A DNA stretch of 64,000 nucleotides. Origin: an uncultured Candidatus Rokubacteria bacterium. GTDB taxonomy: Bacteria; Methylomirabilota; Methylomirabilia; Rokubacteriales; CSP1-6. The stretch covers positions 1 through 64,000 of the forward strand of contig CAWBMV010000035.1 in assembly GCA_963789955.1 (NCBI GenBank), given 5' to 3'. Of this stretch, positions 34,024-61,071 are shown one piece after another (within the stretch, counting starts at the first letter, position 1; each line of letters opens with the position of its first letter). The position numbers and the translations under genes were made by a program. The notes below the pieces were generated by a model. The model was given only the letters and a program-made list of their open reading frames with translations, did no database searches and was not told the origin of the DNA.

Positions 34024-34557
34024 ATGAGAGCAGAGAGCGCCCGGGTCCACATCCGCCACACACGAGGTACCGCGCTACCGCTGCATATGCCGCTTCGCCG
34101 CCTAGCGTTGTGCCTCGATTGCGAGGCATGCTTTGAAATCGGAATCTCGTCATGCCCCGCGTGTGGCGGAGATACCTGGGTGCTCCTCTCCAAGTTCCTC
34201 GACCAGGGGCCGCTGAAGGTCCTGCCCCAGTTCCATCCGTTCCCGAAGAGCTGGACGGCCGAGTCGAAGGGCCGTGACGAGGCCTCGGGACAGGCCGCCA
34301 AGCAGATCCTGGTCGTCGCGCGCGATCGCCAGAAGCTCTTCGAGTACGCGAAGCGAGCGTTTACAGGCAATTCCTCGGTCGAGGTCGTCCTCGATCGCCG
34401 GCGGGCCGAGCGGCGCAGCGGCGAACGGGCCAGCTCGCCGGATCGCCGCCGGGGTGATCGCCGACTCATGAACGAGATCGACAACCACCTCCGGGCCCTT
34501 GGCTGGGCGGTGGTTCGCCTCGACGTCTTCCGGACGCTCGGGTTGACGAGACGGTAG
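34024..34557 (+). CDS. Hypothetical protein: Zn ribbon plus Arg-rich DRR/ERR domain
   Basis: CLDC-x10-CPAC; C-terminal domain shared with the gene at 60589; alternative start at 34087. Confidence 0.75.
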   Translation: MRAESARVHIRHTRGTALPLHMPLRRLALCLDCEACFEIGISSCPACGGDTWVLLSKFLDQGPLKVLPQFHPFPKSWTAESKGRDEASGQAAKQILVVARDRQKLFEYAKRAFTGNSSVEVVLDRRRAERRSGERASSPDRRRGDRRLMNEIDNHLRALGWAVVRLDVFRTLGLTRR

Positions 34558-34566
34558 GTAATTGAC

Positions 34567-34591
34567 ATGGGGGCCCCGAAATGGCCCCCAT
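34567..34591. repeat. REP-like GC-rich hairpin
   Basis: ATGGGGGCC-ccgaaat-GGCCCCCAT, perfect 9-bp stem. Confidence 0.6.
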
Positions 34592-34752
34592 ACCCCCTCG
34601 CTCGGCGTTTTTCTGACCTTGGTCGGTCTCCGTCGTTTCTGCGATCGCTACCCGACCGCTTGCTTCTGAGCTACCATTCCTGCCGTGGCCAGGCTGGCGG
34701 TCTGGCTTGTTCCTCTGGGTGGATCACGGCGCTTTCGGAAAGGAGCGGCGAG

Positions 34753-36449
34753 ATGACCTACGACCTGCTGATCAAGAATGGACGCGTCATCGACGGATCC
34801 GGGCGGCCCGCGTACCACGGTGACGTCGGTGTGGCGAAGGGCAAGATCGTCGAGCTCGGGCGTCTGAGCGGATCCGCGCGCCAGACGATCGAGGCCGACG
34901 GCCGGGTCGTCTCGCCGGGCTTCGTCGACAATCACTGCCACTACGACGCGCAGGTCGTGTGGGATCCCCTCTGCACCTACTCCTGCCACCACGGCTCCAC
35001 CACGGTGATCATCGGCAACTGCTCGCTCGCGCTGGCGCCCGTCAAGCCCGAGGCGCGCGAGAAGCTGGCGGGCATGCTCTCGTACGTCGAAGCCATCCCG
35101 ATGGACGTCCTGCAGGCCGGCGTGCCCTGGAACTGGGAGACGTTCCCTCAGTACATGAGCGCGATCGGCCAGCGGCTCGGCGTCAACGTCGGCACGCTCG
35201 TCGGCCATTCGGCCGTGCGGCTCTACGCCATGGGCGAGGAGTGCTCGGACCGCGACGCCACGCCGGACGAGCTCGAGACGATGCGCCGCCTGGTCCGCGA
35301 ATCGCTCGAGGCCGGCGCGCTGGGGCTCTCGATCACGCGGAACATGAATCACTTCGACATCGCGGGCAAACGCATTCCCGCGGCCTGCGCGCCGGAGTCG
35401 GAGCTGTTCGCGCTGGCCGACGTGCTGCGTGAGGTCGGCACGGGGGTGATGCAGTGCGGCGGCGGCACCAATCCCGAGCTGAAGGACAAGCTCCTGTCCC
35501 GCATCTCGGAAGCGTGCGGCCGGCCGATCATGTACAACACCCTGCTCGAGCAGGCCCGGCAGCCCGGGCGCTGGAAGGCGCACCTGGCGCACGTCGAGGA
35601 AACCGTGAAGCAGGGCATCCGCGCGATCCCGCTCTGCAACCCCGGCAGCGTCGTCAACCGGTTCACGATGAAGAACTGCCAGGTGTTCCGCAGCATGCCG
35701 ACGTGGCTGCCGATTCTGCAGGGCGCCGACGCCGACAAGCTTTCCGCGTACGCCAATCCGGCGATCCGCGCGAAGCTGCGCGAAGAGGTCGACGCGCCGC
35801 TCGGTCCGGACTCGACCTTCTCCAAGCGCTGGGACCTCATGTTCGTCGAAGAGCCCAAGCTCGCGAAGAATCGCGGGCTCGCGGGCAAGCACATCGCCGA
35901 GATCGCCCAGGCCAGGGCCAGCATCCGCTCGACGCGTTCCTCGATCTGGCCGTCGAGGAAAACCTGGAAACGGTGTACAGCCTGGGCGAGATCAACATGG
36001 ACACCGAGGCCGTCGCGCAGATCCTCGGCAGCCCGTACGCGGTGGTCGGACTCACCGACGGCGGCGCTCACGTGCAGTTCCACTCGAACGTCAGCAACCC
36101 GACCCGGCTGCTCGGCTACTGGGTGCGCGAGAAGCAGATCATGTCGCTCGAGCACGCCGTGCGGCGGCTGACGTACGACTCGGCCTCGGCGTTCGGCATC
36201 TACGACCGCGGCCTGGTGCAGCCGGGCATGGCGGCGGACCTGGTGGTCTTCGACCCGGACACCGTCGCGCCGGTCAAGGAAGACGTCGTGCACGATTTCC
36301 CGGCCAACGGCTGGCGGATGCGCGAGCTGGCCGAGGGCATCCACTACACGGTGGTCAACGGCGAGGTGCTGCTCGAGAAGGGCCAGCACACCGGAAGTCA
36401 TCCCGGGCGCGTGATCCGCAACGCTCGCTATCAGATGGCGGGCGCGTAG
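34753..36449 (+). CDS. N-acyl-D-amino-acid deacylase-like amidohydrolase; frameshift near 35915
   Basis: YDLLIKNGRVIDG, PGFVDNHCHYD, IGNC, DGGAH, DRGLVQPG. Confidence 0.88.
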
Positions 36450-36486
36450 CGCGGCGCTGGAATCGATCGAACACTTCTGATCATCG

Positions 36487-36513
36487 CGAGGGGCGGCGTC
36501 GAGCCGCCCCTCG
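36487..36513. terminator. Hairpin between convergent genes
   Basis: CGAGGGGCGGC-gtcga-GCCGCCCCTCG, 11-bp stem. Confidence 0.55.
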
Positions 36514-36555
36514 GTCTATTCGGGTGGTCGGATCGCGCGGGGCAGAGTCAGCGGG

Positions 36556-37870
36556 TTAGTCCGGCCGGAGCTCCCAGACCGTGCCGCCGGGCGTGTCGCG
36601 GAGCTCGATGCGCGCCGCGATCAATCGATCACGAACGCGGTCGGCCAGCTCGAACGCGCGCGCGGCCCGGAGCTCTCCGCGGAGCGTGATCAGGCTCTCG
36701 ACCAGCGGAGCCAGCAGCTCGCGCGGATCGCGCAGTCCGCCCGCCGCGGCCTCGCCGAGTCGTTGCACCAGCGAATGCAGGACGGCCCGCGCGCGGTCCG
36801 GATCGTCGGTCTGAAGCGTGTCGGCCGACCAGTCGCCGATGGCGCGGTCGAGATTCAGGATCGCCTCGGCGGCCTCGGGCGCCCGCCGCGCGGCGATCGC
36901 CGTCTCGAACGCCTGCTCGAGCCGGGTCGACCTCGGAGAGCAGCGGCGATCGCTGCGACGCCGGTGCGTTGGCGCTCGCCGGCGTCGCAGCGCGCCGCCG
37001 CGGCCGCGCCCTCCGTCGCACGCCGCGCCGTGTCCGCTTCGCCGCGAGCGGCGGCGAGCAGCTCATCCAGGCCGAGCTTCGTGCCCGCGGGAAACACGCG
37101 CGACCGGCCGCGACGGCGCACCGTGACGCCGCCGCGCCCCGAGACGGCGACCGTCTTCGCGTCGAGATCGGCCACCAGCACGGTGTGCTCGTCGATGCCG
37201 AGCACCCACGCATCGTCGGGGCAGCATGCCCTCCATCACCGCGAGCCGCCGCTCGCCGAGATAACAGAAGCGCGTGTCGTGCGTGCCGCCCTCGGCGTTG
37301 TCGTAGTGCGGGATGACCACGCACGAGCCCTCGAAGCCGGCCGCGCGCATGAGATCGAGCCCGTCGAGCCAGTGCACGGGATGACCGACCTTGTAGATCT
37401 CGTACACCGGAACGCTGAAGCGGCCGAGCGTCAGCGCCGCCGCGCTCGAGAACACGACCGCGCCGCCCTCGGCGAGCTTGGTGGTGAGCGCCTCGGGCAC
37501 CGGCGAGCTGCGCCAGACCGAGAGCGCGTACGACGGGCTGCCCGGCCCGGCGAACACGAAGCCGGCCGTGCGCAGCCGCGAGAGCGCGGCCGCCTCGGCG
37601 AGCGGGGCGTGATGGCCCTGGTCAGCCGCGAGCGGCCCGAGAATACCCGGCGGCTTCGATCGTCAGCTGCACGCGATGCGCGAAGTACTCGACCGCCCGC
37701 TCGGTGATCTCCGATGCGTTCTCCTGGAATCCGTAGGGCGTGTCGAGCAGGACCGCGCGCGGCGTCGGCTCGCCCAGGCGCGCGACGATCTCGCGGTGCG
37801 GCGTGACCATCGTGGGCGCGGTCTCGCCCGAGCCCATGATCGCGAGGATGCGCGGCGCGCGCGCGCTCAC
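36556..37870 (-). CDS. Peptidase S51/cyanophycinase-like domain fused to a CysRS-like C-terminal domain; several frameshifts
   Basis: IMGSGET, FAGPGSP, FSSAAA, PHYD, LGIDEHT; C-terminus RAARAFELADRVRDRL...ELRDTPGGTVW. Confidence 0.7.
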
Positions 37871-38755
37871 GCGAAGAATCCTTCGCGCAGCGCCTGCAGG
37901 AAGAGCTCCGCCACGCGCTCGGGAGACTCGAGGTGCAGATCGTGGTGGCCGGGCGAGAACCAGACCGAGCGGATCTGGCCGCCGGCCGCGAGCGCCGCCG
38001 CCTCGGCGCTGCGCTTGCGGGAGGTTCTCGAGCCGTCGCCGCTGTCGGCGAGCAGCAGCATCGTCGGCGCCTTCAAGGTCGCCCAGCGGGTCGAGGGGCG
38101 ATGCTCCCAGAGCGAGCGCAGGATCGAGAGATGCCGGCGGCGCTGCAGTCGCGGCTCGATCGTCCCGTCGGCGCGCGTGCGGAAGCAGTGCAGGTACGCG
38201 GCAACCGCGCGATCGGTGAAGTGCGGCACGCTCTTGCGAATCCGCGCCTCGAGCTCCGCCAGGGTGAGATGATCGAGCGCCGGCGGGGTCAGCGCCGCCA
38301 GGCACTCCTCCCACGAGGGATACGCCTGGGACAGCTCGATGACGCCGCCGTCGACGCAGGCGATGCCGCGCACGACATCCGGCCGGCGCCAGCCGAGCTC
38401 CAGCACCACGTTGCCGCCCCAGGACTGGCCGGCGAGGACCGGGCGCTCGAGCTCGAGCGTGCCGATCAGCGTGAGCAGGTCGGCGACCGCGGTGTCCAGG
38501 TCATAGCCGATGTCCGGCGCGTCGGAGAGGCCGTGGCCACGCTGATCGATCACGACCACCGTGTGGCCGGCGGCGTGGAGATGCTCGGCCACGCCGTCCC
38601 AGAGCCGCGCGTTGGACGCCAGACCGTGGACGAGCACGAAGGGGGCCGTCGCCCGATCGCCGAGCCCGCACCTCGACGTGCAGCTCGACACCCGGCGCGA
38701 CCACGACGCGCCGCTCGACCACCTTGGCCACCGACGATCTCGCTGGCTCCGTCAT
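37867..38755 (-). CDS. Alpha/beta fold hydrolase; frameshift near 38665
   Basis: LVHGLAS, DQRGHG, GQSWGG nucleophile elbow, GHHDLH. Confidence 0.88.
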
Positions 38756-38874
38756 GGCGCCAATCCTAGCATCGCTGGCGGCAGGCCGGGGCGCACGCCG
38801 GCGCGCCGGCGCGAACCGGCTCGACTCGCGCCAGATAGAATGGCCCTGACGAAGTCGTCCACGGGGAGGCGCGC

Positions 38875-39256
38875 ATGGCAGGCGGGATCGATCGACGGGT
38901 CTGGCCGGGGTGCTCATCTGGACGGAGGCCGATCGCTTCCCGGCGATGGCGCAGCTTCTACCGGGACACGCTCGGGCTCACGCCGCGCTCCTCGAAGTCG
39001 GATTTCATCAACTTCGACTGGAGCGGCGTTCGGCTGAGCGTGGGCGTGCACGACCGGGTCCGCGGGACGAGCCGCGAGCCGCTGCGGATCATGCTCAACC
39101 TGACCGTCGCCGACATCCGCGCCGTGCACCAGCGTCTGACTCGCGCCGGCGTCGTGCTTCAGTCGCGAGCCCGCGCGCGAGGAGTGGGGCGGGTGGGTCG
39201 CCACGTTCACCGATCCCGACGGCAACATCCTGCAGCTGATGCAGCTTCCGGCGTGA
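38875..39256 (+). CDS. VOC/glyoxalase family protein; multiple frameshifts
   Basis: FYRDTLGL, LTVADI, WGGWVATFTDPDGNILQL over successive frames. Confidence 0.75.
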
Positions 39257-39261
39257 TGCGT

Positions 39262-39787
39262 TCAGCGGTCCTCGCGTAACCGTCGCGAAGGCCGGCGGGT
39301 CGAGCCGAACACGCCCCGTCGAAGTGCGACGCGTACCATTCGTCGTCGAGGCTGCGCGATGCCGACACGCCGACCGGTCTGTCGTGGCGTGAATGAAGCG
39401 GCCGTCGCCGACGTAGATCCCGTTGTGGCGCCGGTGATCGAAGAAGACCAGGTCGCCCGGCTCGAGATCATCGCGCGCCGACCGGCGCGCCGAGCCGGTA
39501 CTGCTGGGCGGCGTTGTGCGGGAGCGCGACGCCCGACCTGCGCGTACACGTAGCGCACCAGACCCGAGCAGTCGAAGCCCGACGGGCTCGATCCGCCCCA
39601 GCGATACGGCGCGCCGACGTACTGCTTCGCGACGGCGACGACCGTCACGGCCGCGCGCGGCTTCGGCGAGCCGTGCGATCGATCGGGACCGGTACCGACA
39701 CCTTCGCGCATCCGGCGGACGACCGCCGAGATCGCCGACGAAAATGACAAAGCCTGCAATGCGTCCAATCATGGCCAATCCAATCAT
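39262..39787 (-). CDS. NlpC/P60 (C40) peptidase; frameshifted, ends approximate
   Basis: [39 protein letters not shown]. Confidence 0.8.
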
Positions 39788-39837
39788 GGGCCGAGCCCGA
39801 GTGCTCGGCGCGGGCCTCGACAGAAGGCCCGAGAGCG

Positions 39838-41119
39838 TCAAATCGCCAGCGCGCAGTTCACGCTGACCGGCGCCGGCGACCGGCCGGCGCAGATCGGGGA
39901 CCAGCTCCTCATAGACATCCACGAGCGCCCGCGCCACGGTCGGCCAGGCAAAGCTCTGCGCCCACCGGGCCGCGTGCCGGCCGAGCGTGCGCCGCCGCGG
40001 CCCGTCGGCCAGCAGCGACCCGATCGCCGAGGCGAGCGCGACGTCGTCGCGCGGTGGGACGAGCACGCCCGTGACGCCGTCCTGAATCGTGGTGGCGAGG
40101 CCGCCCACGCGCGAGGCGACGACCGTGGCGCCGCACGCCATGGCCTCGAGCGCCGCCATGCCGAACGATTCGTGATGCGACGGTACCAGACAGAGATCGG
40201 CCGCGCGGTAGTATTCCGGCAGCGCCGATTGCGGCTCGGGTCCCTTGAAGTCGACCCACCCGCCGACCCCGAGCCCGTCGGCCAGCGCGCGCAGGCGCGC
40301 GCGATCCTCGTTGCCCTCTTCGTTGCGATCGCCGCCCACGATCACCAGCCTCACGTCGGCGTGACCGAGCCCGTCGGCCTTCAAACGCGCGAGCGCCTGC
40401 AGCAGGACCTCGAGTCCCTTGATCGGAGCCGGCCGCCCCACGAACAGCAGCACCCACTCGGCGTGGAGCCCCAGGCGCTCGCGCGCCGCGACCGCGCTGC
40501 CCGGGCTGAAGAGCTCGACGTCGACTCCGCACGGAATCGTCCGCACCCGCTCGACGGCGGCCCCGCAGTACCAGGCGAGCTCGGCGCTCTCGAGCGGCGT
40601 CGCGGCGACGATGCGATCGGCGAGCGCCGCCACTTTCGCCTCGGCGTCGACGCGCGCCTGCGGCACCTGATCGCCGGGCTGATCGGCCAGCGCGTTCTTC
40701 ACGACGCCCAGGGTGTGGAACATCTGGACCACCGGGACGCCGCCGAAGCGTCGCGAGAGATCGACCGCGACCAGGCCGGACAGCCAGTAGTGGCCGTGCA
40801 GCAGCGCGTACTCGGCGCCGCTCCGGCGCTGGAAGGCCATCACGCCGTCGGTGAACTCGTCCAGATCGGTGACGATCTCGGGCGGCGGCACCGGCCGCTG
40901 CGGGCCGGCGTCGATGTGAACGACGCGCGCGCCCCAGCCGAGCGGCACGATCGTCGGCACGCCCGGCGTCTGCTTTCGCGTGAACACGTCGACCGCGAGC
41001 CCCAGCCGCCCGAGATGGCGCGCGACCTCGCGCACGTAGACGTTCATGCCGCCCGTCTCTTTGCCGCCGAGCGCGGCCAGGGGACAGGTATGAACGGAGA
41101 TGACGCCGATGCGCTTCAT
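39838..41119 (-). CDS. GT4 glycosyltransferase, MshA-like; 3' end approximate
   Basis: VHTCPLAALGGKETGGMNVYV, HYWLSG, FHTLG, ESFGMAALEAMACG. Confidence 0.85.
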
Positions 41120-42099
41120 GCGGCGAGCCCGGCCGCCCCGCGCAGCCGTTCGAGGACCGCGAGCAGGGTGATCGATGCGGCGCACGGTCGGCGCGGCACG
41201 TCGCCGCCGCGGACCACCGCATGAAAATGCTCGATCATCTCCCGATACGGATCGGCGCCGGCGGTCACGATGGTCTCGGCCCGGCCGTCGCGGTGGCGGA
41301 GCGTCATCGCGGTGTCCGCGGGCCCCGGCGTGTACGCGCGATCGAGGACGACCGACGCTTCCGTGCCGACGATCTCGAGAAATTGACGCTCGGGCGCGTC
41401 GAACGAGCACTCGATCGTCGCGGTGAATCCATCGCCGAAGTCGAGCCAGCCGGAGAACGACGCGTCGACACCCGACTTCGCGAGCGTGGCGGACGCTTCG
41501 ACTCGCGCGGGCGTGCGGCCCGCCGCCGCCAGGAGCGGCGCCAGACAATAGATGCCGACGTCGAGCAGCGCGCCTCCTCCCATCTCGGGACGCCAGCGAT
41601 GGTCGTCCGGGCGGTCGAGCACGCCCGTGAAGGCGGCCCGCGCGAAGCGCAGCGCCCCCAGGCGGCCCGACGCGACGAGCGTGTCGAGCGCGATCGCCCG
41701 GGGATGGAACGGCGTCATGTAGGCCTCGCACAGCGCGACCCCCGCGCCCTCGCACGCCGCCGCCATCGCCTCGGCATCGGCCACCGTCGGCGCCAGCGGC
41801 TTCTCGCAGAGCACGTGCTTGCCGGCGGCCGCGGCGCGGACGACCCACGCGCGATGCAGGCTGTTCGGCAGCGGCACGTAGACCGCCTCGACCTCGGGAT
41901 CGTCGAGCACGGCGTCGTAGGCTCGGTGGGCGCGCAGGGGCTCGAACCAGCCGGCGCCGCCGTCGGCGGCGCTCTCGCTCGCGACCGCGACGAGGCGCGC
42001 GCCCGGGCTCGCGACGATCGCGGGCAGCACCGCCTTCTGGGCGACCTGCGACGTGGCGCCGATCACACCCCAGCCGACCGGCAGCGCCGGGGCGGGCAC
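41116..42099 (-). CDS. Gfo/Idh/MocA family oxidoreductase
   Basis: WGVIGA, PLPNSLH, HVLCEKP, GGGALLDVGIY. Confidence 0.9.
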   Translation of the reverse strand: MPAPALPVGWGVIGATSQVAQKAVLPAIVASPGARLVAVASESAADGGAGWFEPLRAHRAYDAVLDDPEVEAVYVPLPNSLHRAWVVRAAAAGKHVLCEKPLAPTVADAEAMAAACEGAGVALCEAYMTPFHPRAIALDTLVASGRLGALRFARAAFTGVLDRPDDHRWRPEMGGGALLDVGIYCLAPLLAAAGRTPARVEASATLAKSGVDASFSGWLDFGDGFTATIECSFDAPERQFLEIVGTEASVVLDRAYTPGPADTAMTLRHRDGRAETIVTAGADPYREMIEHFHAVVRGGDVPRRPCAASITLLAVLERLRGAAGLAA

Positions 42100-42100
42100 G

Positions 42101-43774
42101 TCAGCTCCCGTCGTCCTCGATCACGACGGGCGCGCCGCCCGCGCGTGCTCGACCGCTGCGCGGCTTCGAGGACGCCGATGACGCGCCGGACCGACGCCGG
42201 GGTGATCGCGAGGGGCTCGCCGAGGTGGAGGTGATCGGCGAGGTTACGGTGAAAGGCGAACGGCTGATCGACGGCCGGCGGCAGCCGGGTCTCGCTGATC
42301 CCGTAGCCGCTCTCGTAGCGCGCCAGCACCAGCTCGGCCGGCGCCTCGGCGTGATGCGGCTGCGTGGCCACGTAGCCGCGGCCGGGCTCGATCGCCTCGA
42401 GCGTGATCGTGCGGTACGAGCCGACGAGCGTGCCGGCGGTGCCTTGCACGTAGAACTTGGGCCGGCGCACCGCGGCGATGTCGCTCTGAAGGAACTCGGC
42501 CTCGCGACCGTCGGGCCATATCATGCGGACCCGAATCTGATCGTGATTGGTCACGTCGTGCCAGACGCGCTTGTGACCGTGCGCCTGCACGACGCGCGGC
42601 GCGCCCCGAGATGAGCTGGAGCACCCAGTCGACGTGGTGCGAGCCCCAGTCGTAGCCGGCGCCGCCGGAGACCGCGGTGTCCGAGTGCCACGTGCGGCAG
42701 GGATGGGCGTAGCCGCCCACGAAGGTCTCGACGTTGAAGATCTCGCCGAGGAGCCCGGCGCCGACGGCGCGGCGCAGCGCGACGAAGTCGGGATCCCACC
42801 GCCGGTTCTGGTGGACCGTCAGCATGCGCCGGCTCGACGCCGCGGTGGCGATGATCTGGTCCGCCTCCGCGACCGTCAGGCAGAGCGGCTTCTCGCAGGC
42901 CACGTGCTTGCCCGCGCGCAGCAAGGTGAGGGTCAGCGCGACGTGGTGCGCCGGCGGCGTCGCGACCAGCGCCACCTCGACGTCGTCGTCGCTGACGAGC
43001 TCGCTCACCGACGCGTACGTCCGCACGCCCGGGAAGTCCGTCTCGGCGGCCTTGCGCCGCTCGACGTTCGGATCGACCACGGCGACGAGCTCGAGCCCGT
43101 CGGTCGCCGTCACCCCGAGCCCGTGGTGATAGCCCATGCCGCCGAGCGGGCCGTAGCCGACGATGCCCACGCCGATGTTGCGCCCGCAGCAGTGCAAGTC
43201 GGGACGCAGCGCGCGCCCGAGCAGCTGGGCGAGCTCGGGGTTGCCGCAGCGCCGCGTCGGTGTTCCCGAGCCCGCACGCCACCACGCGGCCGGCGCCGCG
43301 AGACGTCTCGACCACGGCGGCGAGGTCACGCAGCGCGACGCTCACGTCGACGATGACCTTGCCGTCCGCGATCGGGATCAGCGGCACGAACCCGTCGACG
43401 AGCGCGAACTCGCGCGTGACGCGGGCCGAGATGTGGGAGTGTGCGTCCGTGACCCTCGCGTAGTACTCGCCCGGCGGCGGCTCCGGACCCGCCACCGCGC
43501 CGAGCAGCTCAGCCCAGAAGCCGTCGCGCTCGACCGGCGCGCCGCCGATCGCGACCAGTGCCATGCCGCGCTCGACCGCCGCACGGATCGCGGCGAGGAA
43601 TTGCAAGGGCTGGGCGGGCTGCGGCCCGTCCACGACGATCGCGTCGCATTCGGACATGTCCGGCGCCGGATCGCCGGGCGTGACGAATTGGGGCTCGCCG
43701 AGCTCTCGCGTCAGAGCCCGGAACGCGGCGCGACGATTCTCCGTGAGACGCGAGGACAGGACCAGGATGTGCAT
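42101..43774 (-). CDS. ThuA-like N-terminal domain plus Gfo/Idh/MocA oxidoreductase; frameshifts near 43245, 42605 and 42130
   Basis: GAGRVVACGLG; VGIVGYG, CEKP, HQNRRWD, YDWGSH. Confidence 0.75.
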
Positions 43775-43780
43775 GGCGGC

Positions 43781-50390: not shown

Positions 50391-50406
50391 GGGCATTGGA
50401 TGTGCA
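50391..50406 (+). promoter_or_regulatory. Weak sigma54-type motif upstream of the pal-like gene
   Basis: GGGCATTGGATGTGCA (GG-N10-GC). Confidence 0.35.
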
Positions 50407-50479
50407 GACTTGCGTCAGCGCCCGCGGCCCGCGACCGAATCGCGGCCCCATCCAGGGCTCGCGGAAGGGAGGATCTCAA

Positions 50480-51049: not shown

Positions 51050-51074
51050 CCCCTAACCCTAACCGTTCACGAAG

Positions 51075-51105
51075 AAGGAGGCGGCACGTGGCCGCCTCCT
51101 TTTTT
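51075..51105 (+). terminator. Rho-independent terminator
   Basis: AAGGAGGCGGC-acgtg-GCCGCCTCCTT followed by a T-run. Confidence 0.85.
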
Positions 51106-51124
51106 GTTTCACCTTCCGTCCGGA

Positions 51125-51826: not shown

Positions 51827-51840
51827 GCCAGGGTAATATG

Positions 51841-51855
51841 GCATATTCGATGCCG
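51841..51855 (-). promoter_or_regulatory. sigma54-type motif upstream of the lytic transglycosylase
   Basis: Minus strand CGGCATCGAATATGC (GG-N10-GC) in an AT-rich intergenic region. Confidence 0.5.
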
Positions 51856-51972
51856 AGCGGAATATCGTTATGTTTCATATGGTTAGAACGAATCGACCGG
51901 AAACAGGCCTGGTGAGTTTCTGGCCGGACGGCTCATTCCCGGACACCCCATTGGGGGCCCGGTCGCTCCGGA

Positions 51973-52971: not shown

Positions 52972-54419
52972 CTGGGTCGGGCGAGCACCTCCGCCGCCTG
53001 CTTCTCCACCACCGTGCCCTTGAAGAAGTCCGGGTTCAGCTGACCCCAGAAGCGCACGGCATTCTCGAACACGAAGTCGCGGAAGTCGTTCTCGTCGAGG
53101 AGCCCGTGCTCGACCAGCTCGTACGCCTCGGGAACCACCTCGGTCATGTCGGGCACGTCGAAGTGGCCGATGTCCGAGCTGAAGAACGCGTTGAGCCGCG
53201 CGTGCATCGGGTTCGCCTTGCGATTGAAGGCCCACGCGTTGATCGGGTCGTCGGCCTCGCAGCCGAAGTAGAAGCGCTTGATGTAGAGGTCGTTGAAATC
53301 CTGCTTGCTCGTGATCTGGCAACGCGAGTAGTCGTCGAGATCCTCGACGCCGCCGGTGCCGTCACCGTTGTCGTCCAGCCCCTCGCCGCGACGCACCGCC
53401 TCGATCACGGTGGGCTTCCCGTACTTCTCGGCGAGCGCGAGCAGCTGGGCCCGGTCGAGTCGCGCCGGGTTGGTGTTCTCGAGCGCGTCGCGCTTGCGCT
53501 TCTCCCAGTGCCCGATGAGATCGGCGAAGAGCGAGCACGCCCAGCCGACGCCGCCCTCGAGGAAGGCGAAGTTGATCTCGGGGAATCGGCGCGTGACGCC
53601 GCCGAAGAAGATGGCCTTCGCCATGGCCTCGCTCGCGGAGGCGAAGTGTCCGATGTGGTTGTAGCAGAAGTTCGACGGCGAGTTGCGAAGCAGGATCGAG
53701 CGCGCCCCGTTGTGGAAGCTCGGCGAGATGCGCAGCTCGCGGCACTTCGCCCAGACCGGATCGTAGTCGTGAATGCTGTCGATCGCGATCGGGTCGTACC
53801 ACTCGACGAACTTCGCGGCCTCCGGATGCTCCTCGACGAGCGCCTGGATCGGCCGGCGGATCAAGCTTCCCATCATCACGACCCGGTAGCCCAGCTGCCG
53901 TGACGCGAACTCGAGCTCTTCGCACGCCTCTTCGGGCGAGTACATCGGGATGATCGCGGCGGGAATGAGCCGATCGCCGTACGGGCGGAACTGGTCCATC
54001 GTGAACACGTTGTAGGCGCGACACAGGGCGCGCCGCAGCTTGTCCGGCGGCAGCCGGTAGTAGCCGAGCCCGGCGGTCGGATAGATCACGGAGAAATCGA
54101 GCCCGAGATCGTCCAGGCGCTCGTAGAGCAGGCGCGGCATCATCGCGGTCGCGCGATCCAGGGTGTTCTTCGTCGGCAGGAACCAGAACGCCTCCTGCCC
54201 GATCCGGCGCCGGCGCCGCTCGGCCACGGACATGTTGAGCGAGTTGGGGATACGCGCGCTCGCCATCGCCAGCGCCTCGACCGCCGCGTCGCCGCCGATG
54301 CGACGAAACTCCTCGCGCATGTGCGGCGCGAACTCGGCCCAGTGGCCATCCGCGTCGATGATCGGGTGCTTCAGGCCCGCGCGGAGCTTCTTCGCCTCGT
54401 GCTGTCCATTGCTCGACAT
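52968..54419 (-). CDS. Amidohydrolase_2 family protein
   Basis: IDADGH, YDPVW, FLEGG, SSDIGHFD. Confidence 0.85.
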   Translation of the reverse strand: MSSNGQHEAKKLRAGLKHPIIDADGHWAEFAPHMREEFRRIGGDAAVEALAMASARIPNSLNMSVAERRRRRIGQEAFWFLPTKNTLDRATAMMPRLLYERLDDLGLDFSVIYPTAGLGYYRLPPDKLRRALCRAYNVFTMDQFRPYGDRLIPAAIIPMYSPEEACEELEFASRQLGYRVVMMGSLIRRPIQALVEEHPEAAKFVEWYDPIAIDSIHDYDPVWAKCRELRISPSFHNGARSILLRNSPSNFCYNHIGHFASASEAMAKAIFFGGVTRRFPEINFAFLEGGVGWACSLFADLIGHWEKRKRDALENTNPARLDRAQLLALAEKYGKPTVIEAVRRGEGLDDNGDGTGGVEDLDDYSRCQITSKQDFNDLYIKRFYFGCEADDPINAWAFNRKANPMHARLNAFFSSDIGHFDVPDMTEVVPEAYELVEHGLLDENDFRDFVFENAVRFWGQLNPDFFKGTVVEKQAAEVLARPR

Positions 54420-54592
54420 GGCCACCCTCCGGGGCAAGCGTTATCTCGGGATGATACTCCGATGTGCCGGGTCGAGGAATGCCGTCGCGACGGGGGCGAA
54501 CCAGGCGGCTTGATCGCCGGCCTCTTTGCTGGCTAAATCGGGGCGGTCGCGGAATCTTTCCAGAATCTACCGTCGCGACAGGAGAGACCGAT

Positions 54593-55519
54593 ATGCTTCC
54601 GGCACCGGGCTTCCATCATCTCCATCTGAACTCCGTCGATCCGGACGCGGCGATCGCGTTCTACGTCGAGCAGTTCCCGACCAGCGCCAAGTCGAGCTGG
54701 GGTGGCTTCCCGGCGCTCGCGGCGCCGAACAACGTCCTGATCTTGTTCACGAGGGTCGCCACGGCGGCGCCGACCTCACCGCAAACCGCGCTCTGGCACT
54801 TCGGCTGGCATGTCACCGACACGCGCAAGAGCCTCGACACCTACACGGCTCGGAAGAGCCTCACGCTCCTGCCGCTCTACACCACGGACGAGGGCGGCTC
54901 GGTCTTCATCAGCAGCGACAGCTGGCCGGGCACGGGCGGCGTGCCCGGGCGAACGAAGGCGCAGATCGCCGAGGCCAAGGCGCAGGGCATCCAGCCGGCT
55001 CGCAGCGGAGGCTTCGGCTACATGCAGGGCCCCGACGACGCCCTGGTCGAATATGCGGGGAACCATCCGGCCGAGCGCTTCAACCACGTGCATATGTTCC
55101 AGGACGATCCGTTCTGCGCGCAGATCTGGTATCAGCAGCATCTCAACGCGCCGGTGTTCGCGGGTCGCACGAGCCCGGCCGGAATGACGGAGAGCACGTG
55201 CCAGGTCCCGCGCGGACCTGAACGCTCGTGGCCGGCGCTCGAACGCCAGGGAATGTTCCGGTCGCCGTCAGCGGCCGTGATGTTCGGAGACGTGGCGCTG
55301 CCGTGGTACATGCGGCAGGACGACAAGCCGCTCGCGAGCTCGCGCGGTCACCTCTACGATCACATCGCGCTCACGGTGGCCGACCTCGATGCCTGGGTCG
55401 CGAAGCTGCGCGGCGAAGGCGTGCGGTTCCTCGAAGAGCCTTATCGTCTCGGCGCTACGCGGGCGGCGATGATCGAGGGCCCGAGCCGCGAGGCGATCGA
55501 GCTGGTCGAGGTCAGGTAG
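54593..55519 (+). CDS. Two-domain VOC/glyoxalase family protein
   Basis: FHHLHL, WHFGW, FNHVH, DHIAL, IELVE; AGGAG RBS. Confidence 0.8.
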   Translation: MLPAPGFHHLHLNSVDPDAAIAFYVEQFPTSAKSSWGGFPALAAPNNVLILFTRVATAAPTSPQTALWHFGWHVTDTRKSLDTYTARKSLTLLPLYTTDEGGSVFISSDSWPGTGGVPGRTKAQIAEAKAQGIQPARSGGFGYMQGPDDALVEYAGNHPAERFNHVHMFQDDPFCAQIWYQQHLNAPVFAGRTSPAGMTESTCQVPRGPERSWPALERQGMFRSPSAAVMFGDVALPWYMRQDDKPLASSRGHLYDHIALTVADLDAWVAKLRGEGVRFLEEPYRLGATRAAMIEGPSREAIELVEVR

Positions 55520-56693
55520 CGGCCTGCCGCCGCGCTCGGATGTCGGAGGACGAGGAGTCGAGGCGGAAGCGGCTCTCCGGGATCGCGACGAACAGGCGGG
55601 CAAACCGCTCAGGAACGGCGACGTCGCTCAGCGCGCGCACCCGGCCGGCGCGATCCACGCGCACCGCCACGAGAAACGAGCACCCGCGGTCGGCGATCTC
55701 CTGGAGCGCCGCGGCCATCCGCTCGGCGCTATCGCCGTAGTACCGCGCCGCCACCAGACGCTCGGCCGTGTCGGCGCCGATGACGAACGCCGCGCCCGGG
55801 AACAGCCGTGCCTTCTCGAGGAACGTCGGCGCCCGGGTGAGCTCGACGCGCGCCCGCCACGCGAACTGCGCGAGCCGGTTTCGTACCTCGCCGGCCGCGA
55901 GCGGCGGCTTGTCGACGTTGAGCACCGCGATCTCGAACGCGACCGGCTGCTGCCGGATGTCCTCGGCGACGCGCGCGAGCAGGAGATGTCCGGCGTGCAA
56001 CGGATTGAACGAGCCGGGCAGCACGACACCAGGCGGTGCGGCCGCCGGCACGAGCTGTCCATCGGGCCACACCGTCACGCGAGAGACTCCGCCGGCGAGG
56101 AGCTGGTCGATCAGATCGCCGGTCTGCACGACGGCCTCCGCGTAGCGCTCGTCGGCCTCCAGCAAGGTGCGCGGCGACGGGACCGGGACTCCGCACGCGC
56201 GGGCCAGCCACAACACGATGGCACGCGCCACGAGGTCCTCTTCGCCGGGACGATCGCGCCGCCCCTTCGCCAGCACGATCGAGCAGTGGTCGGTCCCGGC
56301 TCCGGTGGTGACGGCGATGTGGAAGCGGTGCTCGCCCTGCCTGGGCCGATCGGTGACGAGCCCCGCCGTGGCGCCGAGGCCGACCAGCTGAGCGCCGGTC
56401 GGCGCGAATTTCGCCGCGCGCTCGCGCGCACGCTGCGCCATGGCCACCGCCGTCTCGACGCTGCACGCCTGCTCCGGCTCGAAGCCCAGGAACGCTGTCA
56501 GCGCCCGCGAATCGTAGGGCACCAGCGCCTCGAGCAGCAGCCGCGACCCGCCCGGCACCCGCAGTAGCTCCGAGATCGCGCCGCTCCCGCCCCCGGTGAT
56601 GGCGAGCACCGCCTGGCGGCCGGACGCATGCATCTCGGCGATCGTTTGTCGCCACGACGCGTCGGATTGGCGTTCGACTCCGCTGGAATCCAC
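55512..56693 (-). CDS. CinA/PncC-like domain fused to an HxGH nucleotidyltransferase (NadD-like)
   Basis: ELLRVPGGS...AVAMAQRA; PGSFNPLHAGH, IGADT, SSSDIR. Confidence 0.72.
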   Translation of the reverse strand: MDSSGVERQSDASWRQTIAEMHASGRQAVLAITGGGSGAISELLRVPGGSRLLLEALVPYDSRALTAFLGFEPEQACSVETAVAMAQRARERAAKFAPTGAQLVGLGATAGLVTDRPRQGEHRFHIAVTTGAGTDHCSIVLAKGRRDRPGEEDLVARAIVLWLARACGVPVPSPRTLLEADERYAEAVVQTGDLIDQLLAGGVSRVTVWPDGQLVPAAAPPGVVLPGSFNPLHAGHLLLARVAEDIRQQPVAFEIAVLNVDKPPLAAGEVRNRLAQFAWRARVELTRAPTFLEKARLFPGAAFVIGADTAERLVAARYYGDSAERMAAALQEIADRGCSFLVAVRVDRAGRVRALSDVAVPERFARLFVAIPESRFRLDSSSSDIRARRQAAT

Positions 56694-56706
56694 GGCGGAG
56701 GAGATT

Positions 56707-57543
56707 CTACATGACGGCTCCGCCGTCGACGTTCCACGCCTGGCCCGTGATGTGGTCGCTCTGCGCCGAGGCGAGGAAGAGCGCGAGTCGCGCGACGTCG
56801 TCGGGTCGCGCGACCCGCCCGGTCGGCGGCAGGCCGAGGACCGCGGCGCCGGGCTCGCGCTCGGCGAGCGCGCGCTCGCGGCGCGAGGTCGATTCGCGGC
56901 GGCTCGTGTCGACGCTGCCCGGGCAGATCGCGTTCACGGTGATCCCGTGCGGGGCGAGCTCCTGAGCCATGGCCTGCGTGAGGCCGATCACCCCGAACTT
57001 CGACGCGGTGTAGGCGCCGCGGCGGGGCGTGCCACGCTTGCCCGAGATCGACGCCATATTGACGATGCGGCCGCTGCGGCGCGACAGCATGTGCGGAATC
57101 ACCGCGCGGCTCATCAAGAACGTGCCCTTGAGATTGACGTCGATGACGAGATCCCACGCCTCTTCCGGGACCTCCCAGAGCAGACGACGGTCGGCTCCGT
57201 GGGGCGCGGCCGCGTTGTTGACGAGCACGTCGATGCGGCCGAACCGCGCAAGCGCTTCCTTCACGAAACGCTCGGCGTCGGCGGCGCGACTCACGTCGCC
57301 CTCGAGCGTGAGGATCCGGCGTCCGAGGCCTTCGATCTCCTTGGCCAGGCTTTCCAGTCCCGTCCAGCCCAGGCGGATCTCCTCGAGCCCTTCCTCGTTC
57401 TCGTTGCGCGTGCCGCCGATCGCGATATCGGTCGCGACGACATCGGCGCCGGCCCGAGCGAACGCGACCGAGAGGGCGCGGCCGATTCCGCGGACGCGCC
57501 CGCATCCGGTGACCAGCACGCACGTTCCTTCGAATTCGCTCAC
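56707..57543 (-). CDS. Short-chain dehydrogenase/reductase
   Basis: TGCGRVRGIG, LVNNAA, YTASK, NVDGG. Confidence 0.92.
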   Translation of the reverse strand: MSEFEGTCVLVTGCGRVRGIGRALSVAFARAGADVVATDIAIGGTRNENEEGLEEIRLGWTGLESLAKEIEGLGRRILTLEGDVSRAADAERFVKEALARFGRIDVLVNNAAAPHGADRRLLWEVPEEAWDLVIDVNLKGTFLMSRAVIPHMLSRRSGRIVNMASISGKRGTPRRGAYTASKFGVIGLTQAMAQELAPHGITVNAICPGSVDTSRRESTSRRERALAEREPGAAVLGLPPTGRVARPDDVARLALFLASAQSDHITGQAWNVDGGAVM

Positions 57544-57728
57544 GGCCCGTACCTCCCTATCCTCTGGACCCCGAACGCCGAGATGGCTCGGGGCCGGGCC
57601 CGACCATACGGCAGGACCCGGCCCTCGTCCAGCCGGCCCCCAGGTCTCGCCGTTTTCTTTGGCCCTGCCCACCACACGTGGTAGTCATGGGGTTGGACAC
57701 GGCTCAATTTGCCGCAAAGGGGGATTGG

Positions 57729-57902
57729 ATGACGAAGCGCACGGCCAGTAAGAAACCCGCATTCGGAGGCTACGCGATCAGCTTTCGGGGTCGCACGGAC
57801 AGCCTGGAGTCGCTGTTCGGCGCCACGCCGATCGGACCCGCCGAGATGACCAAGAAGCTCTGGAGCTACGTGAAGCGGAAGGGTCTGGCCAGCAAGAGCT
57901 GA
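57729..57902 (+). CDS. Small basic SWIB/MDM2-like protein
   Basis: LFGATPIGPAEMTKKLWSYVKRKGL matches the SWIB core pattern. Confidence 0.6.
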   Translation: MTKRTASKKPAFGGYAISFRGRTDSLESLFGATPIGPAEMTKKLWSYVKRKGLASKS

Positions 57903-57913
57903 GCTGACGCCGA

Positions 57914-57940
57914 GCCGGGCGGCCCCCCACGCCGCCCGGC
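57914..57940. terminator. GC-rich hairpin between the SWIB-like and Crp genes
   Basis: GCCGGGCGGC-loop-GCCGCCCGGC; no T-tract. Confidence 0.45.
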
Positions 57941-57953
57941 CCAACCTCGCGGC

Positions 57954-58643
57954 GTGACGATCGCATCACGTCGCCGCCTCCCTGATCGCTCGACTCGAAG
58001 CGCGCCGGCGAGCAGCCCCGCGCTCAGGACGTACCTTGCGAAGGCCCGAGGGGGCACCAGCAAGGATTACCGGAAGAAAACAACCGTCTTCTCGCAGGGT
58101 AGTCCCGCGGATTCAGTTTTCTACATTGAGAAGGGCAAGGTGAAGCTGACCGTAATCTCCACGCGCGGGAAGGAAGCGGTCGTCGCGATCTTGAGCAGCG
58201 GCGATTTCTTTGGTGAAGGTTGCCTGGCGGGACAGCCGCTTCGCATGGCCACGGCGATCGCGATCACTGAGTGTTCACTCCTTCGACTTCAAAAAGAAAC
58301 TATGGTCCGAATGCTCCACAATGAGCCCGCATTGTCCGAGCTCTTCATGTCGTACCTGCTGTCTCGGAATGTGCGGATCGAAGAGGACCTGGTCGATCAG
58401 CTTTTCAATTCCAGCGAGAAACGGCTCGCGCGCATTCTGTTGCTGCTGACCCGCTTCGGCAAAGACGGGCAACATGAGCCCGTCGTGCCCAAGATCAGTC
58501 AGGAAACCCTGGCCGAAATGGTCGGGACGACGCGATCCAGGGTGAGTTTCTTCATGAACAAGTTTCGGAAGCTCGGCTTCATCGAATATAACGGCGGCTT
58601 GAACGTCCATAGCTCCCTCCTCAATATCGTCCTCCACGACTAG
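57954..58643 (+). CDS. Crp/Fnr family transcriptional regulator
   Basis: GDFFGE, RMATA, EKRLAR, HTH SQETLAEMVGTTRSRVS. Confidence 0.92.
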   Translation: MTIASRRRLPDRSTRSAPASSPALRTYLAKARGGTSKDYRKKTTVFSQGSPADSVFYIEKGKVKLTVISTRGKEAVVAILSSGDFFGEGCLAGQPLRMATAIAITECSLLRLQKETMVRMLHNEPALSELFMSYLLSRNVRIEEDLVDQLFNSSEKRLARILLLLTRFGKDGQHEPVVPKISQETLAEMVGTTRSRVSFFMNKFRKLGFIEYNGGLNVHSSLLNIVLHD

Positions 58644-58732
58644 AGGGCATTCGTACCGTTAGTCTGTCGTCGCTGTCGACCAAAAACCCGATCCTCCCGC
58701 CTCGTTCTGTGCTTCGCCACGGTGGCCCCCGC

Positions 58733-58794
58733 TTGACACCGTAAGTAACCAGCTAGATACTCACGGCCACGGTTTGGTATCCAGATGGTTACTT
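58733..58794 (+). promoter_or_regulatory. sigma70 promoter with two TetR-type operator copies
   Basis: TTGACA-N17-GATACT; 58743-58760 and 58777-58794 are inverted 16/18-identical imperfect palindromes. Confidence 0.75.
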
Positions 58795-59417
58795 CGAGCC
58801 GCGACCCGGTCCGTACTCGCGAGCGCATCCTTCGCGCCGCCCGGCGCGAATTCGTCGCCAAGGGGTTCGCCGGCGCGCGCGTCGACGTGATCGCGCGCGC
58901 CGCGGCCGTGAACAAGCGGATGCTGTACCACTATTTCGACAACAAGGAAGGCCTCTATCGCGCCACGCTCTACGAGGGCATGGCGACGAACCTCGATCTG
59001 GTCGCCTCCGCGCCGGCCGATCCCGACGACCTCTTGCCGTTCCTGTTCGCGCGCGCCGCGAAGCGCGTGGACGGGATCCGCCTCCTTCAGTGGGAAGCAC
59101 TGGGCGCCGGCGCCCGCAAGCCCATTGCCGAGGACGAGCGGCGCAAGGCGTGGGTCGAGGGCACCGAGCGCATCCGTGACGCGCAGCGCGCCGGCCGGCT
59201 GCACCCGGACCTCGACGCCGAGTACCTCGTTCTGGCGCTCATGGCGCTGACGATCTTTCCCCAGGCCTTCCCCCAGCTCGTGCGCATGGTCACCGGCTCA
59301 CGACTGTCCGACGCCGAGTTCCAGCAACGCCAGGCGCGCTTCCTTCGCCGCCTGGGCAGCTATCTGCGGCCGTCCGTGGGGCGCGCGGCGCTCGCGGACA
59401 AGGAGAAGCAGCGATGA
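58785..59417 (+). CDS. TetR/AcrR family transcriptional regulator
   Basis: RERILRAARREF..KGF.GARVDVIA.....NKRMLYHYFDNKE. Confidence 0.93.
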   Translation: MVTSSRDPVRTRERILRAARREFVAKGFAGARVDVIARAAAVNKRMLYHYFDNKEGLYRATLYEGMATNLDLVASAPADPDDLLPFLFARAAKRVDGIRLLQWEALGAGARKPIAEDERRKAWVEGTERIRDAQRAGRLHPDLDAEYLVLALMALTIFPQAFPQLVRMVTGSRLSDAEFQQRQARFLRRLGSYLRPSVGRAALADKEKQR

Positions 59418-60592
59418 GCTCCGTACCGACCACACTCTTCGGACGCTCGACCGATACGTACACGCGCGTCGATTCCGTCGGTCTCTACCGGGTCGCGCTC
59501 TGGGTGCTGCTGGGCGCCAATCTCCTCGCCGGCTGGGGCGTGCAGTGGGACATCCAGTGGCACGTGCGCATCGGCCGCGACACGTTCTGGATTCCGCCGC
59601 ACGTCATCACCTATTCGGGCGTGACGATCCTCGTGCTGGCCAGCTTCGGCGTGCTGGCGCGTGACACGCTTCGCCATCTGCTCGCGGGCCGCGCCCCCGA
59701 GGGCACGGAACGCGTGCTCGGCCTCACCGGCACGCCGGGGTTTCTCCTGGCGGCGTGCGGCATCGCGCTGACGGTTCTGGCGGCGCCGATCGACGACCTC
59801 TGGCACCGCTTGTTCGGCATCGACGTCACGTTGTGGAGCCCGCCGCACCTTCTCGGTCTGGTCGGCGTCACGATCAACACCTTGGGATGCGCGCTCATCG
59901 CCCGCGAAGCGTACCCGGCGAAGAGCTGGGTGCGGTTCGCCGGCGTGGTCATCGCGCTCACCAGCTTCTACGGCAGCCTCTCGATCGGGCTGCGGCCCGC
60001 CAGCCGGCTCGCGTATCTATACGGCGGGCTCTGGTTTTACGCCTTTCCGATCCTCGGCGCGCTCTTCCTGCCGCTGGCGATGATCACGGCCGTGCGCCTC
60101 AGCGGGCGGCGCTGGACGCCGATCGCACTGGTGATCGTCGGACTCGCCGTCGGCACGATCGGCGTGAACATCGCGCGGATCGGCTTCGACATCATGCGGC
60201 CGGTCTCGGTGATCGAGGATGAGATCGCCAAGGACCCGACGTCGCCGATCGCGGTGTCCCACGCGATCGCGCGGAAGAACGGCAGTACGCCCGGCGGGGT
60301 CCCCGGCGGAAGCTTCGCGCGGTTTCTCTCGCTGGTGCCCGTGCTGCTGCTGGTCGCCGTCGACCCCCGGCGACGGCCGATGTCGGCGACCTTGGTCTAC
60401 GCCCTGGGGCTGTTCGCCCTCTGGGCCTTCACGATCGGCCGGACACCGGCCTTTCAGCCGATGATGCCCGGACCGGCGCCGACCGTGGTCGCGCTGGTGA
60501 TCACGACCGCGATGGCCGTGGTCGGAGGACTGGCCGCCCGCTGGCTCGCCGAGACCCTGGCGACTGCGGACCGGGTTCCGGTGGAGGGTTAG
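59414..60592 (+). CDS. Polytopic membrane protein with two DxxWH...PPH motifs
   Basis: Many hydrophobic segments; WDIQWHVRIGRDTFWIPPH and IDDLWHRLFGIDVTLWSPPH; ATGA coupling to tetR. Confidence 0.8.
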   Translation: MSSVPTTLFGRSTDTYTRVDSVGLYRVALWVLLGANLLAGWGVQWDIQWHVRIGRDTFWIPPHVITYSGVTILVLASFGVLARDTLRHLLAGRAPEGTERVLGLTGTPGFLLAACGIALTVLAAPIDDLWHRLFGIDVTLWSPPHLLGLVGVTINTLGCALIAREAYPAKSWVRFAGVVIALTSFYGSLSIGLRPASRLAYLYGGLWFYAFPILGALFLPLAMITAVRLSGRRWTPIALVIVGLAVGTIGVNIARIGFDIMRPVSVIEDEIAKDPTSPIAVSHAIARKNGSTPGGVPGGSFARFLSLVPVLLLVAVDPRRRPMSATLVYALGLFALWAFTIGRTPAFQPMMPGPAPTVVALVITTAMAVVGGLAARWLAETLATADRVPVEG

Positions 60593-61071
60593 GCGCGCGC
60601 GTCGGGAGGGTGGTTTCGGCGAATCTTCGGGCCGCGCAGACGCACGATGGTCCAGCCGATCGCGCGGAGGAGCCCTTCGGTCCTCTCGGGCGAGCGTCGA
60701 TTCCTCGGGCGTCGTGCGCCGGGCCGGCGCACCGGATCCAGGGGGCTATCGCCGCGCCGATCCAGGACGATCTGGACCGTCGCGTTGCCCTCGAAAGCCC
60801 GTCTGAAGAAGTTGTAGAGGTGTTCCCGATCCGGTGAGACGACGATGAGCTGTCGGGATCCTCCCGGCCGCTCGTCGAGGGTCCTCACCCGCCGAACCAG
60901 CTCATAGAGCGCGCTCTTACCCCCGTTGTAGCCGAGGGTCTGGGCCCGGCGCATGATTTCGACCGCCGAGATCGTAGGCTCCTCCCGCAGCCACTGCGCC
61001 ACCTGGGCCGCGTACTGGGCCACGATGGAAGGGCGCCGTGCATTGCTCGGCTGGGAGCCGCCATCACCCAT
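60589..61071 (-). CDS. Hypothetical protein: IS21 IstA-like HTH plus Arg-rich DRR domain
   Basis: RPS...WLREEP..SAVEI.RRA...GY.GGKSALYELVRR; C-terminal domain shared with the gene at 34024. Confidence 0.7.
   Translation of the reverse strand: MGDGGSQPSNARRPSIVAQYAAQVAQWLREEPTISAVEIMRRAQTLGYNGGKSALYELVRRVRTLDERPGGSRQLIVVSPDREHLYNFFRRAFEGNATVQIVLDRRGDSPLDPVRRPGARRPRNRRSPERTEGLLRAIGWTIVRLRGPKIRRNHPPDARA

Follow-up and report, generated by a model that had tools for sequence, protein, structure and literature searches.

When a 64,000-nucleotide stretch of an uncultured Candidatus Rokubacteria genome (contig CAWBMV010000035.1, positions 1 to 64,000; hereafter the window) was analyzed, two open reading frames (ORFs) were found to share a real C-terminal domain of about 78 residues that has no named family. 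Gene A (34024-34557, + strand) encodes 177 residues comprising a zinc ribbon, a linker and the domain, and gene B (60589-61071, − strand) encodes 160 residues (counted from the ATG) with an IS21-transposase-like helix-turn-helix (HTH) in front of a degenerate copy. The domain carries a loop of tandem [DE]RR blocks and is referred to here as the arginine-loop domain. It is apparently an undescribed signalling domain restricted to the phylum Methylomirabilota. By analogy with the Caulobacter Cle peptide, it may be a dimeric receptor for cyclic diguanylate (c-di-GMP) that uses DRR and RRxxD elements; we hold this reading to be evenly balanced between right and wrong, and propose it because the loop holds both elements of CleD twice together with conserved acidic residues.

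Among the components of c-di-GMP signalling, receptors are the hardest to predict. The existence of stand-alone domains of 77 residues that are easy to express and have a sharply defined candidate site makes binding a directly testable question in an uncultured soil lineage. If the domain binds, it would add a receptor family of more than 1,000 sequence clusters and would connect c-di-GMP with the synthesis of cyclic nucleotides and with two-component systems. Otherwise it remains a signalling domain that is unannotated and confined to one phylum; it accounts for many 'hypothetical proteins', and its modules have been swapped recently, one swap being the capture of a transposase HTH.

Homology, range and architecture of the family

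The domains of A and B were compared using BLASTP and shared 36 of 87 residues (41 % identity; E-value 5e-17). In a search of the whole genome, B was the third match for the domain of A, and A the second for that of B. An earlier note on this DNA had aligned the two C-termini by eye and pointed to their differing N-terminal partners, and both observations were borne out, the partners being a four-cysteine ribbon in A and a three-helix, IS21-like HTH in B. With an iterative profile, 32 matches were obtained from the window's genome; they include a few halves of frameshifted copies and fall at about 29-31 sites. The copies are scattered singletons. Two of them (L009 and L012) lie in regions of lower G+C content (GC) filled with short ORFs, degenerate members of a small repeated family.

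With a profile built from 26 copies, matches were found in 120 of 151 Methylomirabilota genomes, the counts per genome being lower bounds (36 candidates scored in each). The order's two main families had the domain in 92/93 and 11/11 genomes, and family f5 in 0/18. Clusters at 50 % identity numbered 3,971 at E ≤ 0.001, the weak end of which may contain unrelated arginine-rich proteins, and 1,444 at E ≤ 1e-10. The source names and record titles of the matches were those of Rokubacteria or Methylomirabilota, as were the titles of 75 of the best 80 of 131 loci. Among the other five, one shares its contigs with a same-genus genome, a 'Binatia'-titled genome and a second, untitled genome have same-genus genomes among their relatives, and one untitled genome is without firm placement. 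The 'Binatia'-titled record (L120, G155) holds 15 copies, and its title is probably a mislabel. A Myxococcales match (1 of 61 in that phylum) lies on a 9-kb contig. No established presence outside Methylomirabilota was found with one other phylum sampled and an empty single-protein scan, and the queries used did not find the domain in viral contigs, plasmids or phages.

The earlier note could not assign the domain to a named family, and neither could we. Pfam gave no significant match for A, B or the 26 copies, NCBIfam gave none for the arginine-loop domain, PHROGs gave none at E < 0.01, and the PDB none that was significant. Atlas contained no named cluster for it, the unnamed Methylomirabilota clusters standing at 0.89. 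One homologue of B bears the precomputed label of a newer Pfam family, PF27155, and the other listed homologues bear no precomputed family label. The domain was not met with in a literature search that covered main texts and few subscription papers, nor in the consulted passages of an effector review from 2025 (PMC12564702).

Many members are stand-alone proteins of 75-105 residues, and some chains contain two or three copies. The domain is also found at the C-terminus of proteins of about 1,200 residues with the order zinc ribbon-cyclase-AAA-TPR (class III cyclase-STAND proteins), which represent the commonest large fusion (9 of 86 domain-bearing frames in the 80 GTDB loci), and at the C-terminus of a sigma-54 activator-AAA-TPR protein. 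Further partners include GAF, GAF-MshEN, PAS-HisKA, coiled coils and other cysteine-rich heads. Two REC fusions were observed among 64 proteins scanned, with REC placed C-terminal to the domain. In the window's genome, one cyclase-AAA-TPR gene (L013, C1:277443-281000, − strand) has its tail domain out of frame and its counterparts in two same-genus genomes (L034 and L036) have it fused in frame; either an assembly error or a recent frameshift would account for this.

Genes for HisKA proteins lie within 3.5 kb of 8 of 29 copies (2.1-2.5 expected; p 0.0004-0.004) and within 10 kb of 14 of 29 (about 6.1 expected). Together with the fusions to signalling modules, this agrees with the signalling role suggested in the earlier note. 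Its picture of a modular, lineage-expanded domain also held, with about 30 copies in this genome, presence in 120/151 genomes of the phylum and exchanged N-terminal partners; the size and range of the family, the fixed tandem and the predicted dimer had been missed.

When a phylogenetic tree was drawn for 67 domains, B and its orthologues, two GAF-MshEN proteins and one zinc-ribbon protein formed a clade (support 99/92). Thus, the N-terminal partner has been exchanged within one young branch. Gene A groups with this clade only weakly (85/58), and the tree leaves most deep branchings unsettled. A well-supported separate clade consists of seven membrane-anchored paralogues (L015, L020, L021, L022, L024 and L025), in which the loop is shortened and the C-terminal part is long and of low complexity.

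At a GC of 68 %, arginine-rich shadow frames are common and, as noted, a few copies are frameshifted, so spurious frames or remnants of DNA repeats had to be considered as the source of the copies. We dismiss this explanation almost entirely. It is refuted by the in-frame fusions, by the conserved promoters described below and by two codon patterns, and the confident core fold also argues against it. In the domain of A, synonymous codon changes exceed replacement changes (315 versus 165 among 14 orthologues). Codon usage is diverse as well; the first DRR is encoded by 19 different codon strings across 31 copies and is therefore kept at the protein level.

The arginine loop and the predicted dimer

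In A the domain spans residues 93-166 (34300-34521, + strand) with a predicted beta-alpha-beta-loop-alpha-beta order, and the loop covers D124-R147 (34393-34464, + strand). The loop follows the pattern [DE]RRxx[DE]RR, eight residues, [DE]RRxx[DE]RR, and is the candidate ligand site. All four blocks are present in A. In an alignment of 116 rows (column number + 89 = residue number in A), R36, R37 and R58 are found in 100 % and D35 in 97 % of the rows, R41, R42, R53 and R57 in at least 90 %, and R11 in 89 %. The acidic residue before each RR pair is kept in 87-97 %. The invariant positions are thus loop arginines and not core residues. From the topology, R11 (following strand 1), D35-R37 (following strand 2) and R57-R58 (preceding helix 2) should cluster at one end of the sheet.

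The full tandem was found in 10 of the 33 domains of the window's genome and in 97 of 162 database domains, compared with 0.0 and 1.0 in shuffled loops; as the database domains were the top scorers of the profile, their motif counts are inflated. The linker between the two blocks was eight residues long in 9/9 own and 83/97 database tandems. No other called protein of the window's genome contains the tandem motif.

AlphaFold2 predicted a strand-helix-strand unit, a low-confidence loop of 23 residues and a helix-strand unit, with a mean predicted local distance difference test (pLDDT) of 78 and a core above 80. The domain is predicted to form a homodimer. The interaction score (ipSAE) was 0.65 compared with 0.26 for the best control, pLDDT was at least 74, and the runs shared at least 89 % of contacts. 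On a rough count, 20 of 30 solved dimers attained this mark, as did 1 of 23 solved monomers. The run for the dimer model contained c-di-GMP, and the ligand was not scored. The predicted interface is formed by helix 1, with its conserved hydrophobic residues, together with helix 2 and strands 1 and 3; the loop lies outside it. We know of no comparable complex, and none turned up in a PDB sequence search or in the fold searches.

The fold searches yielded no match at E ≤ 0.001 with either the domain or B (best Foldseek E-value for the domain, 0.58), which does not establish a new fold. In a VIA fold comparison with 48,161 chains the best Z was 4.5 (root-mean-square deviation 3.0, 57 residues aligned) and none reached 5. 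All top rows belong to the thioredoxin/KaiB/glutathione S-transferase (GST) N-terminal fold, the first half of which has its elements in the same order as the domain. However, the domain has no CxxC, lacks the last strand and helix and contains a 24-residue arginine loop after strand 2, and a Z of 4.5 is within the range of common arrangements. The PDB sequence search gave only weak SEFIR rows, in which a 28-residue stretch matched bacterial SEFIR at E-values of 0.25-0.27; compared with the five-stranded TIR/SEFIR domains, ours is about half the length. A likeness to the receiver beta1-alpha1-beta2 unit and to DUF559, which had been considered, was unsupported by Pfam or the fold searches.

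A homodimer formed through conserved hydrophobic residues of helix 1, with the loop outside the interface, could also be expected of a plain dimerisation or docking module. Paralogues would then pair in combinations, uniting cyclases, kinases, receivers and DNA-binding heads, and the loop would bind an acidic protein surface and not a nucleotide. Tandem copies within one chain fit this explanation, as does the erosion of the loop with retention of the core in the B family (block 1 in 24 of 45 rows) and in the membrane-anchored group. The strictest conservation, however, is that of the loop, with its fixed linker and its alternating acidic and arginine residues, and the first and last RR pairs are kept even in the eroded subfamilies. 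We therefore consider a pure docking role unlikely.

c-di-GMP and other candidate ligands

The c-di-GMP receptor reading would work as follows. The portable domain, multiplied in Rokubacteria, would dimerise through its small alpha/beta core, and the tandem [DE]RRxx[DE]RR loop would bind c-di-GMP and so switch the attached module. The Asp and Glu residues would read the base edge of guanine, and the arginine pairs would stack on an intercalated c-di-GMP dimer in a Cle-like manner. Binding may order the loop and alter the geometry of the dimer or the access of a partner. Stand-alone copies of 77 residues might act as sinks or competing subunits.

The closest parallel is the arginine-rich region (ARR) of CleA-E. 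In CleD, the peptide recognises a c-di-GMP dimer by means of DRR-x11-[RK]RxxD and becomes folded as it binds (PMC7382256). As described in PMC5677366 and PMC7382256, the ARR is, like the loop of our domain, a short, flexible, portable segment with DRR and [RK]RxxD in tandem, and both are appended to signalling domains. They differ in that our domain requires no CheY-like domain (a family-library scan found no receiver domain in A or B), has no [YF]xGP, has a spacing of 9 and not 11 and contains four [DE]RR blocks. In addition, its segment is an internal loop of a folded, predicted dimeric domain, and the family belongs to Methylomirabilota, whereas 294 of 302 matches in the ARR search were alphaproteobacterial (PMC5677366, PMC7382256). 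With a spacing of 8-12 allowed, DRR plus [RK]RxxD was found in 11/33 own and 111/162 database domains (1.1 and 11.1 in shuffled loops). Gene A has this pattern and B does not.

PilZ (PF07238) offers a second comparison. Like our domain it is small and portable, is found both by itself and in fusions with REC, GAF, kinases and cyclases, and has a flexible arginine-rich segment. However, our domain has a predicted alpha/beta core of three strands and two helices and no beta-barrel, the DxSxxG motif is absent from the column profile of the 116 rows, none of 26 members matched PF07238 at E ≤ 1, and true PilZ proteins are encoded separately in the window's genome. The earlier note's appeal to RxxxR and PilZ carries no weight, as RxxxR was found in 29/33 own loops and 29.8 shuffled ones. 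The domain would act like PilZ or the Cle peptide, yet it is a member of neither.

The window's genome contains 7 GGDEF, 4 PilZ and 4 MshEN matches over the cut-off, and GGDEF was found in 149/151 genomes of the phylum. Genus g32 (two genomes, 95-98 % complete), the one genus of its family almost without domain copies (0 and 1 marginal match), has one GGDEF match in each genome, which supports a c-di-GMP receptor.

Several results weigh against that reading. The whole tandem is kept in only 10 of 33 own copies. The exact Cle pattern DRR-x11-[RK]RxxD was found in 0/33 own domains and 1/162 database domains, and [YF]xGP[DE][RK]R likewise in 0/33 and 1/162. The spacing here is 9, and Tyr163 and Gly165 of CleD have no conserved counterpart; the loss of either costs CleD 25- to 43-fold, and single loop deletions cost it 2- to 11-fold (Table 1 of PMC7382256). 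No GGDEF gene lies within 10 kb of any of 31 copies (0.46 expected). The number of domain copies, capped by the 36 candidates scored per genome, followed the number of GGDEF proteins only weakly, with a rho of 0.32 in 106 genomes and 0.18 (p 0.25) for 44 genus means. One 94 % complete genome (G012) has no GGDEF match and four domain matches, the one inspected keeping its DRR blocks, and family f5 encodes GGDEF in 17 of the 18 genomes that are without the domain. An EAL domain was sought in five genomes (the window's and four related ones) and none was found; HD-GYP proteins may be what degrades c-di-GMP.

Cyclases are the partners in the commonest large fusion, and 26 cyclase domains over the cut-off are encoded in the window's genome. 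The loop might bind another guanine-containing or cyclic nucleotide (cGMP, cAMP, cGAMP or (p)ppGpp), as it would if, for instance, the fused class III cyclases were under feedback from their product. Near the copies there is a mild enrichment of cyclase genes (within 3.5 kb of 3 of 31; 0.8 expected) and none of GGDEF genes, and co-variation with GGDEF is weak. On the other hand, only one of the STAND cyclase loci found in the genome adjoins a domain copy. According to PMC7382256, binding of c-di-GMP as an intercalated dimer is typically marked by motifs that combine multiple Arg with Asp, and the Cle peptide bound no GMP, GTP, pGpG, c-di-AMP or cGAMP. We regard a different nucleotide as quite unlikely. 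The synthesis of cyclic nucleotides may be tied to c-di-GMP in a second way elsewhere in the genome, where C20:133819-135174 (− strand) encodes a class III cyclase with a C-terminal PilZ-like domain.

With at least 8 arginines in 24 residues, an HTH and zinc ribbons among the partners, and small, predicted dimeric and often stand-alone members, the proteins could also be nucleic-acid-binding regulators whose loop is an arginine-rich RNA- or DNA-binding motif. This appears decidedly improbable. An acidic residue is kept before each arginine pair, which would be needless for a binder of polyanions, and the membrane-anchor and kinase fusions fit less well. That acidic residues are conserved suggests that bases are read and that plain charge is not what counts.

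If c-di-GMP is the ligand, a wider picture can be drawn. A receptor of Rokubacteria's own, with dozens of copies and mixed dimers, would form a phylum-specific, combinatorial second-messenger switchboard that subjects STAND cyclases, histidine kinases, receivers and a captured transposase HTH to a single messenger. Stand-alone copies would then be sponges, and loop-less copies such as B ligand-blind subunits. We offer this as a speculation that is probably wrong in its full extent.

Genes A and B and their promoters

Gene A would be an intact receptor carrying a zinc ribbon. The ribbon (residues 22-60; 34087-34203, + strand) has cysteines C30, C33, C44 and C47, which are conserved in homologues. 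Its closest Atlas clusters are unnamed proteins of 57-62 residues, mostly from phages, and this is taken as a lead only. An orthologue of A was found in 15 of 16 same-genus genomes.

Gene B is a degenerate member and, judged from its residues, probably a poor ligand binder. In its domain (residues 73-145; 60637-60855, − strand) only the first DRR and the final NRR of the loop are kept. Both middle [DE]RR blocks and the last Asp are gone, and R11, an Arg after strand 1 in most of the family, is replaced by Pro. It is because of these losses that B is the poorer test case for binding. Basal B orthologues retain the middle blocks. The earlier note's arginine motifs are therefore present in A and largely lost in B; it had recognized the HTH of B and had not seen its transposase-like origin or the degenerate loop. 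Among eight orthologues, the domain of B shows 136 synonymous and 176 replacement codon changes, an excess that fits an eroding loop. As most of the loop is lost, B would act as a DNA-binding protein in which the domain serves chiefly to dimerise the HTH.

This HTH (residues 10-68; 60868-61044, − strand) matches positions 43-104 of the IS21 transposase model NF033546 (E-value 8.8e-6), as it did in all eight B-family proteins scanned. Over its full length, B scores 25 bits against a cut-off of 160. The region resembles HTH-2 of the IS21 transposase IstA, given as residues 55-104 in PMC10122671; in contrast to IstA, B has no HTH-1 and, with 160 residues, no DDE domain. As the gene has been passed on at a conserved locus that includes a sigma-54 promoter, the HTH is likely a domesticated DNA-binding head. 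The predicted structure of B has a three-helix N-terminus and is poor outside the HTH (mean pLDDT 60). The same IS21-like HTH forms a small stand-alone protein in the window's genome (C12:345656-346009, + strand), whose gene is preceded by a sigma-54-like site and a B-type upstream element; it is likely a domesticated transposase HTH and a plausible donor of that of B.

Orthologues of B were found in 8 of 16 same-genus genomes, and those of A and B lie on one common contig in three cases. Gene B is flanked by ORFs for a membrane protein, a TetR regulator and a permease-like protein. A Crp-family regulator with a cyclic-nucleotide-binding domain and an HTH (57954-58643, + strand) is encoded 2 kb away from B, within a patch of low GC.

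The sigma-54 motifs that the earlier note had placed at both genes are conserved. The −24/−12 motif of A (33988-34002, + strand) is an exact pattern match kept in 14/15 orthologous loci, the extracted stretch of the fifteenth ending short of the site, and that of B (61086-61100, − strand) is a variant scoring 16.1 bits and kept in 9/9 loci. Both lie 20-40 bases 5' of the start. A further 65-82 bases upstream lies a conserved element, at 33890-33907 (+ strand) for A and 61164-61181 (− strand) for B. The two resemble each other and are candidate activator (enhancer) sites, possibly of a common activator. Between the element and the promoter of B, a conserved stretch (61118-61130) resembles an integration host factor (IHF) site. 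RpoN is encoded in the genome. With a matrix from the orthologues of A only, the promoter of B ranks 3rd of 227 sigma-54-like sites, and with the matrix of B, that of A ranks 7th; this cross-ranking is partly circular, as the sites were chosen on a common four-base core. From these sequences, both genes are likely activated by one common sigma-54 activator.

Control of the whole family by sigma-54 was rejected. At 9 bits, 6 of 29 copies had a site (background 2.9 %), or 4 of 27 when A and B were left out, and at 11 or 13 bits the sites were not significant, most other copies being without a sigma-54 promoter. No clear wider regulon was found when the A/B upstream element was sought in the genome. 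The AT-richer patches reported by the earlier note apply to the upstream regions, whose GC of 0.56 is under the 5th percentile (0.58) of 1,210 intergenic stretches, and not to the genes themselves (0.66 and 0.685, compared with 0.693 for the window).

Contigs from three RNA runs of two studies start at 34029-34036, directly 3' of the predicted start site, and finish at 34540-34560, over gene A, and contigs of runs X1 and X2 cover most of B. They are only a hint of transcription, because contigs are no proof of it and the runs were picked using the A region. Run X9 covers both gene regions continuously and was left out as possibly DNA. Directly 3' of A, a G+C-rich hairpin (34566-34604) has three matches in the genome, and many unrelated RNA-run contigs match the window at this place alone; it is therefore probably a dispersed repeat or a terminator.

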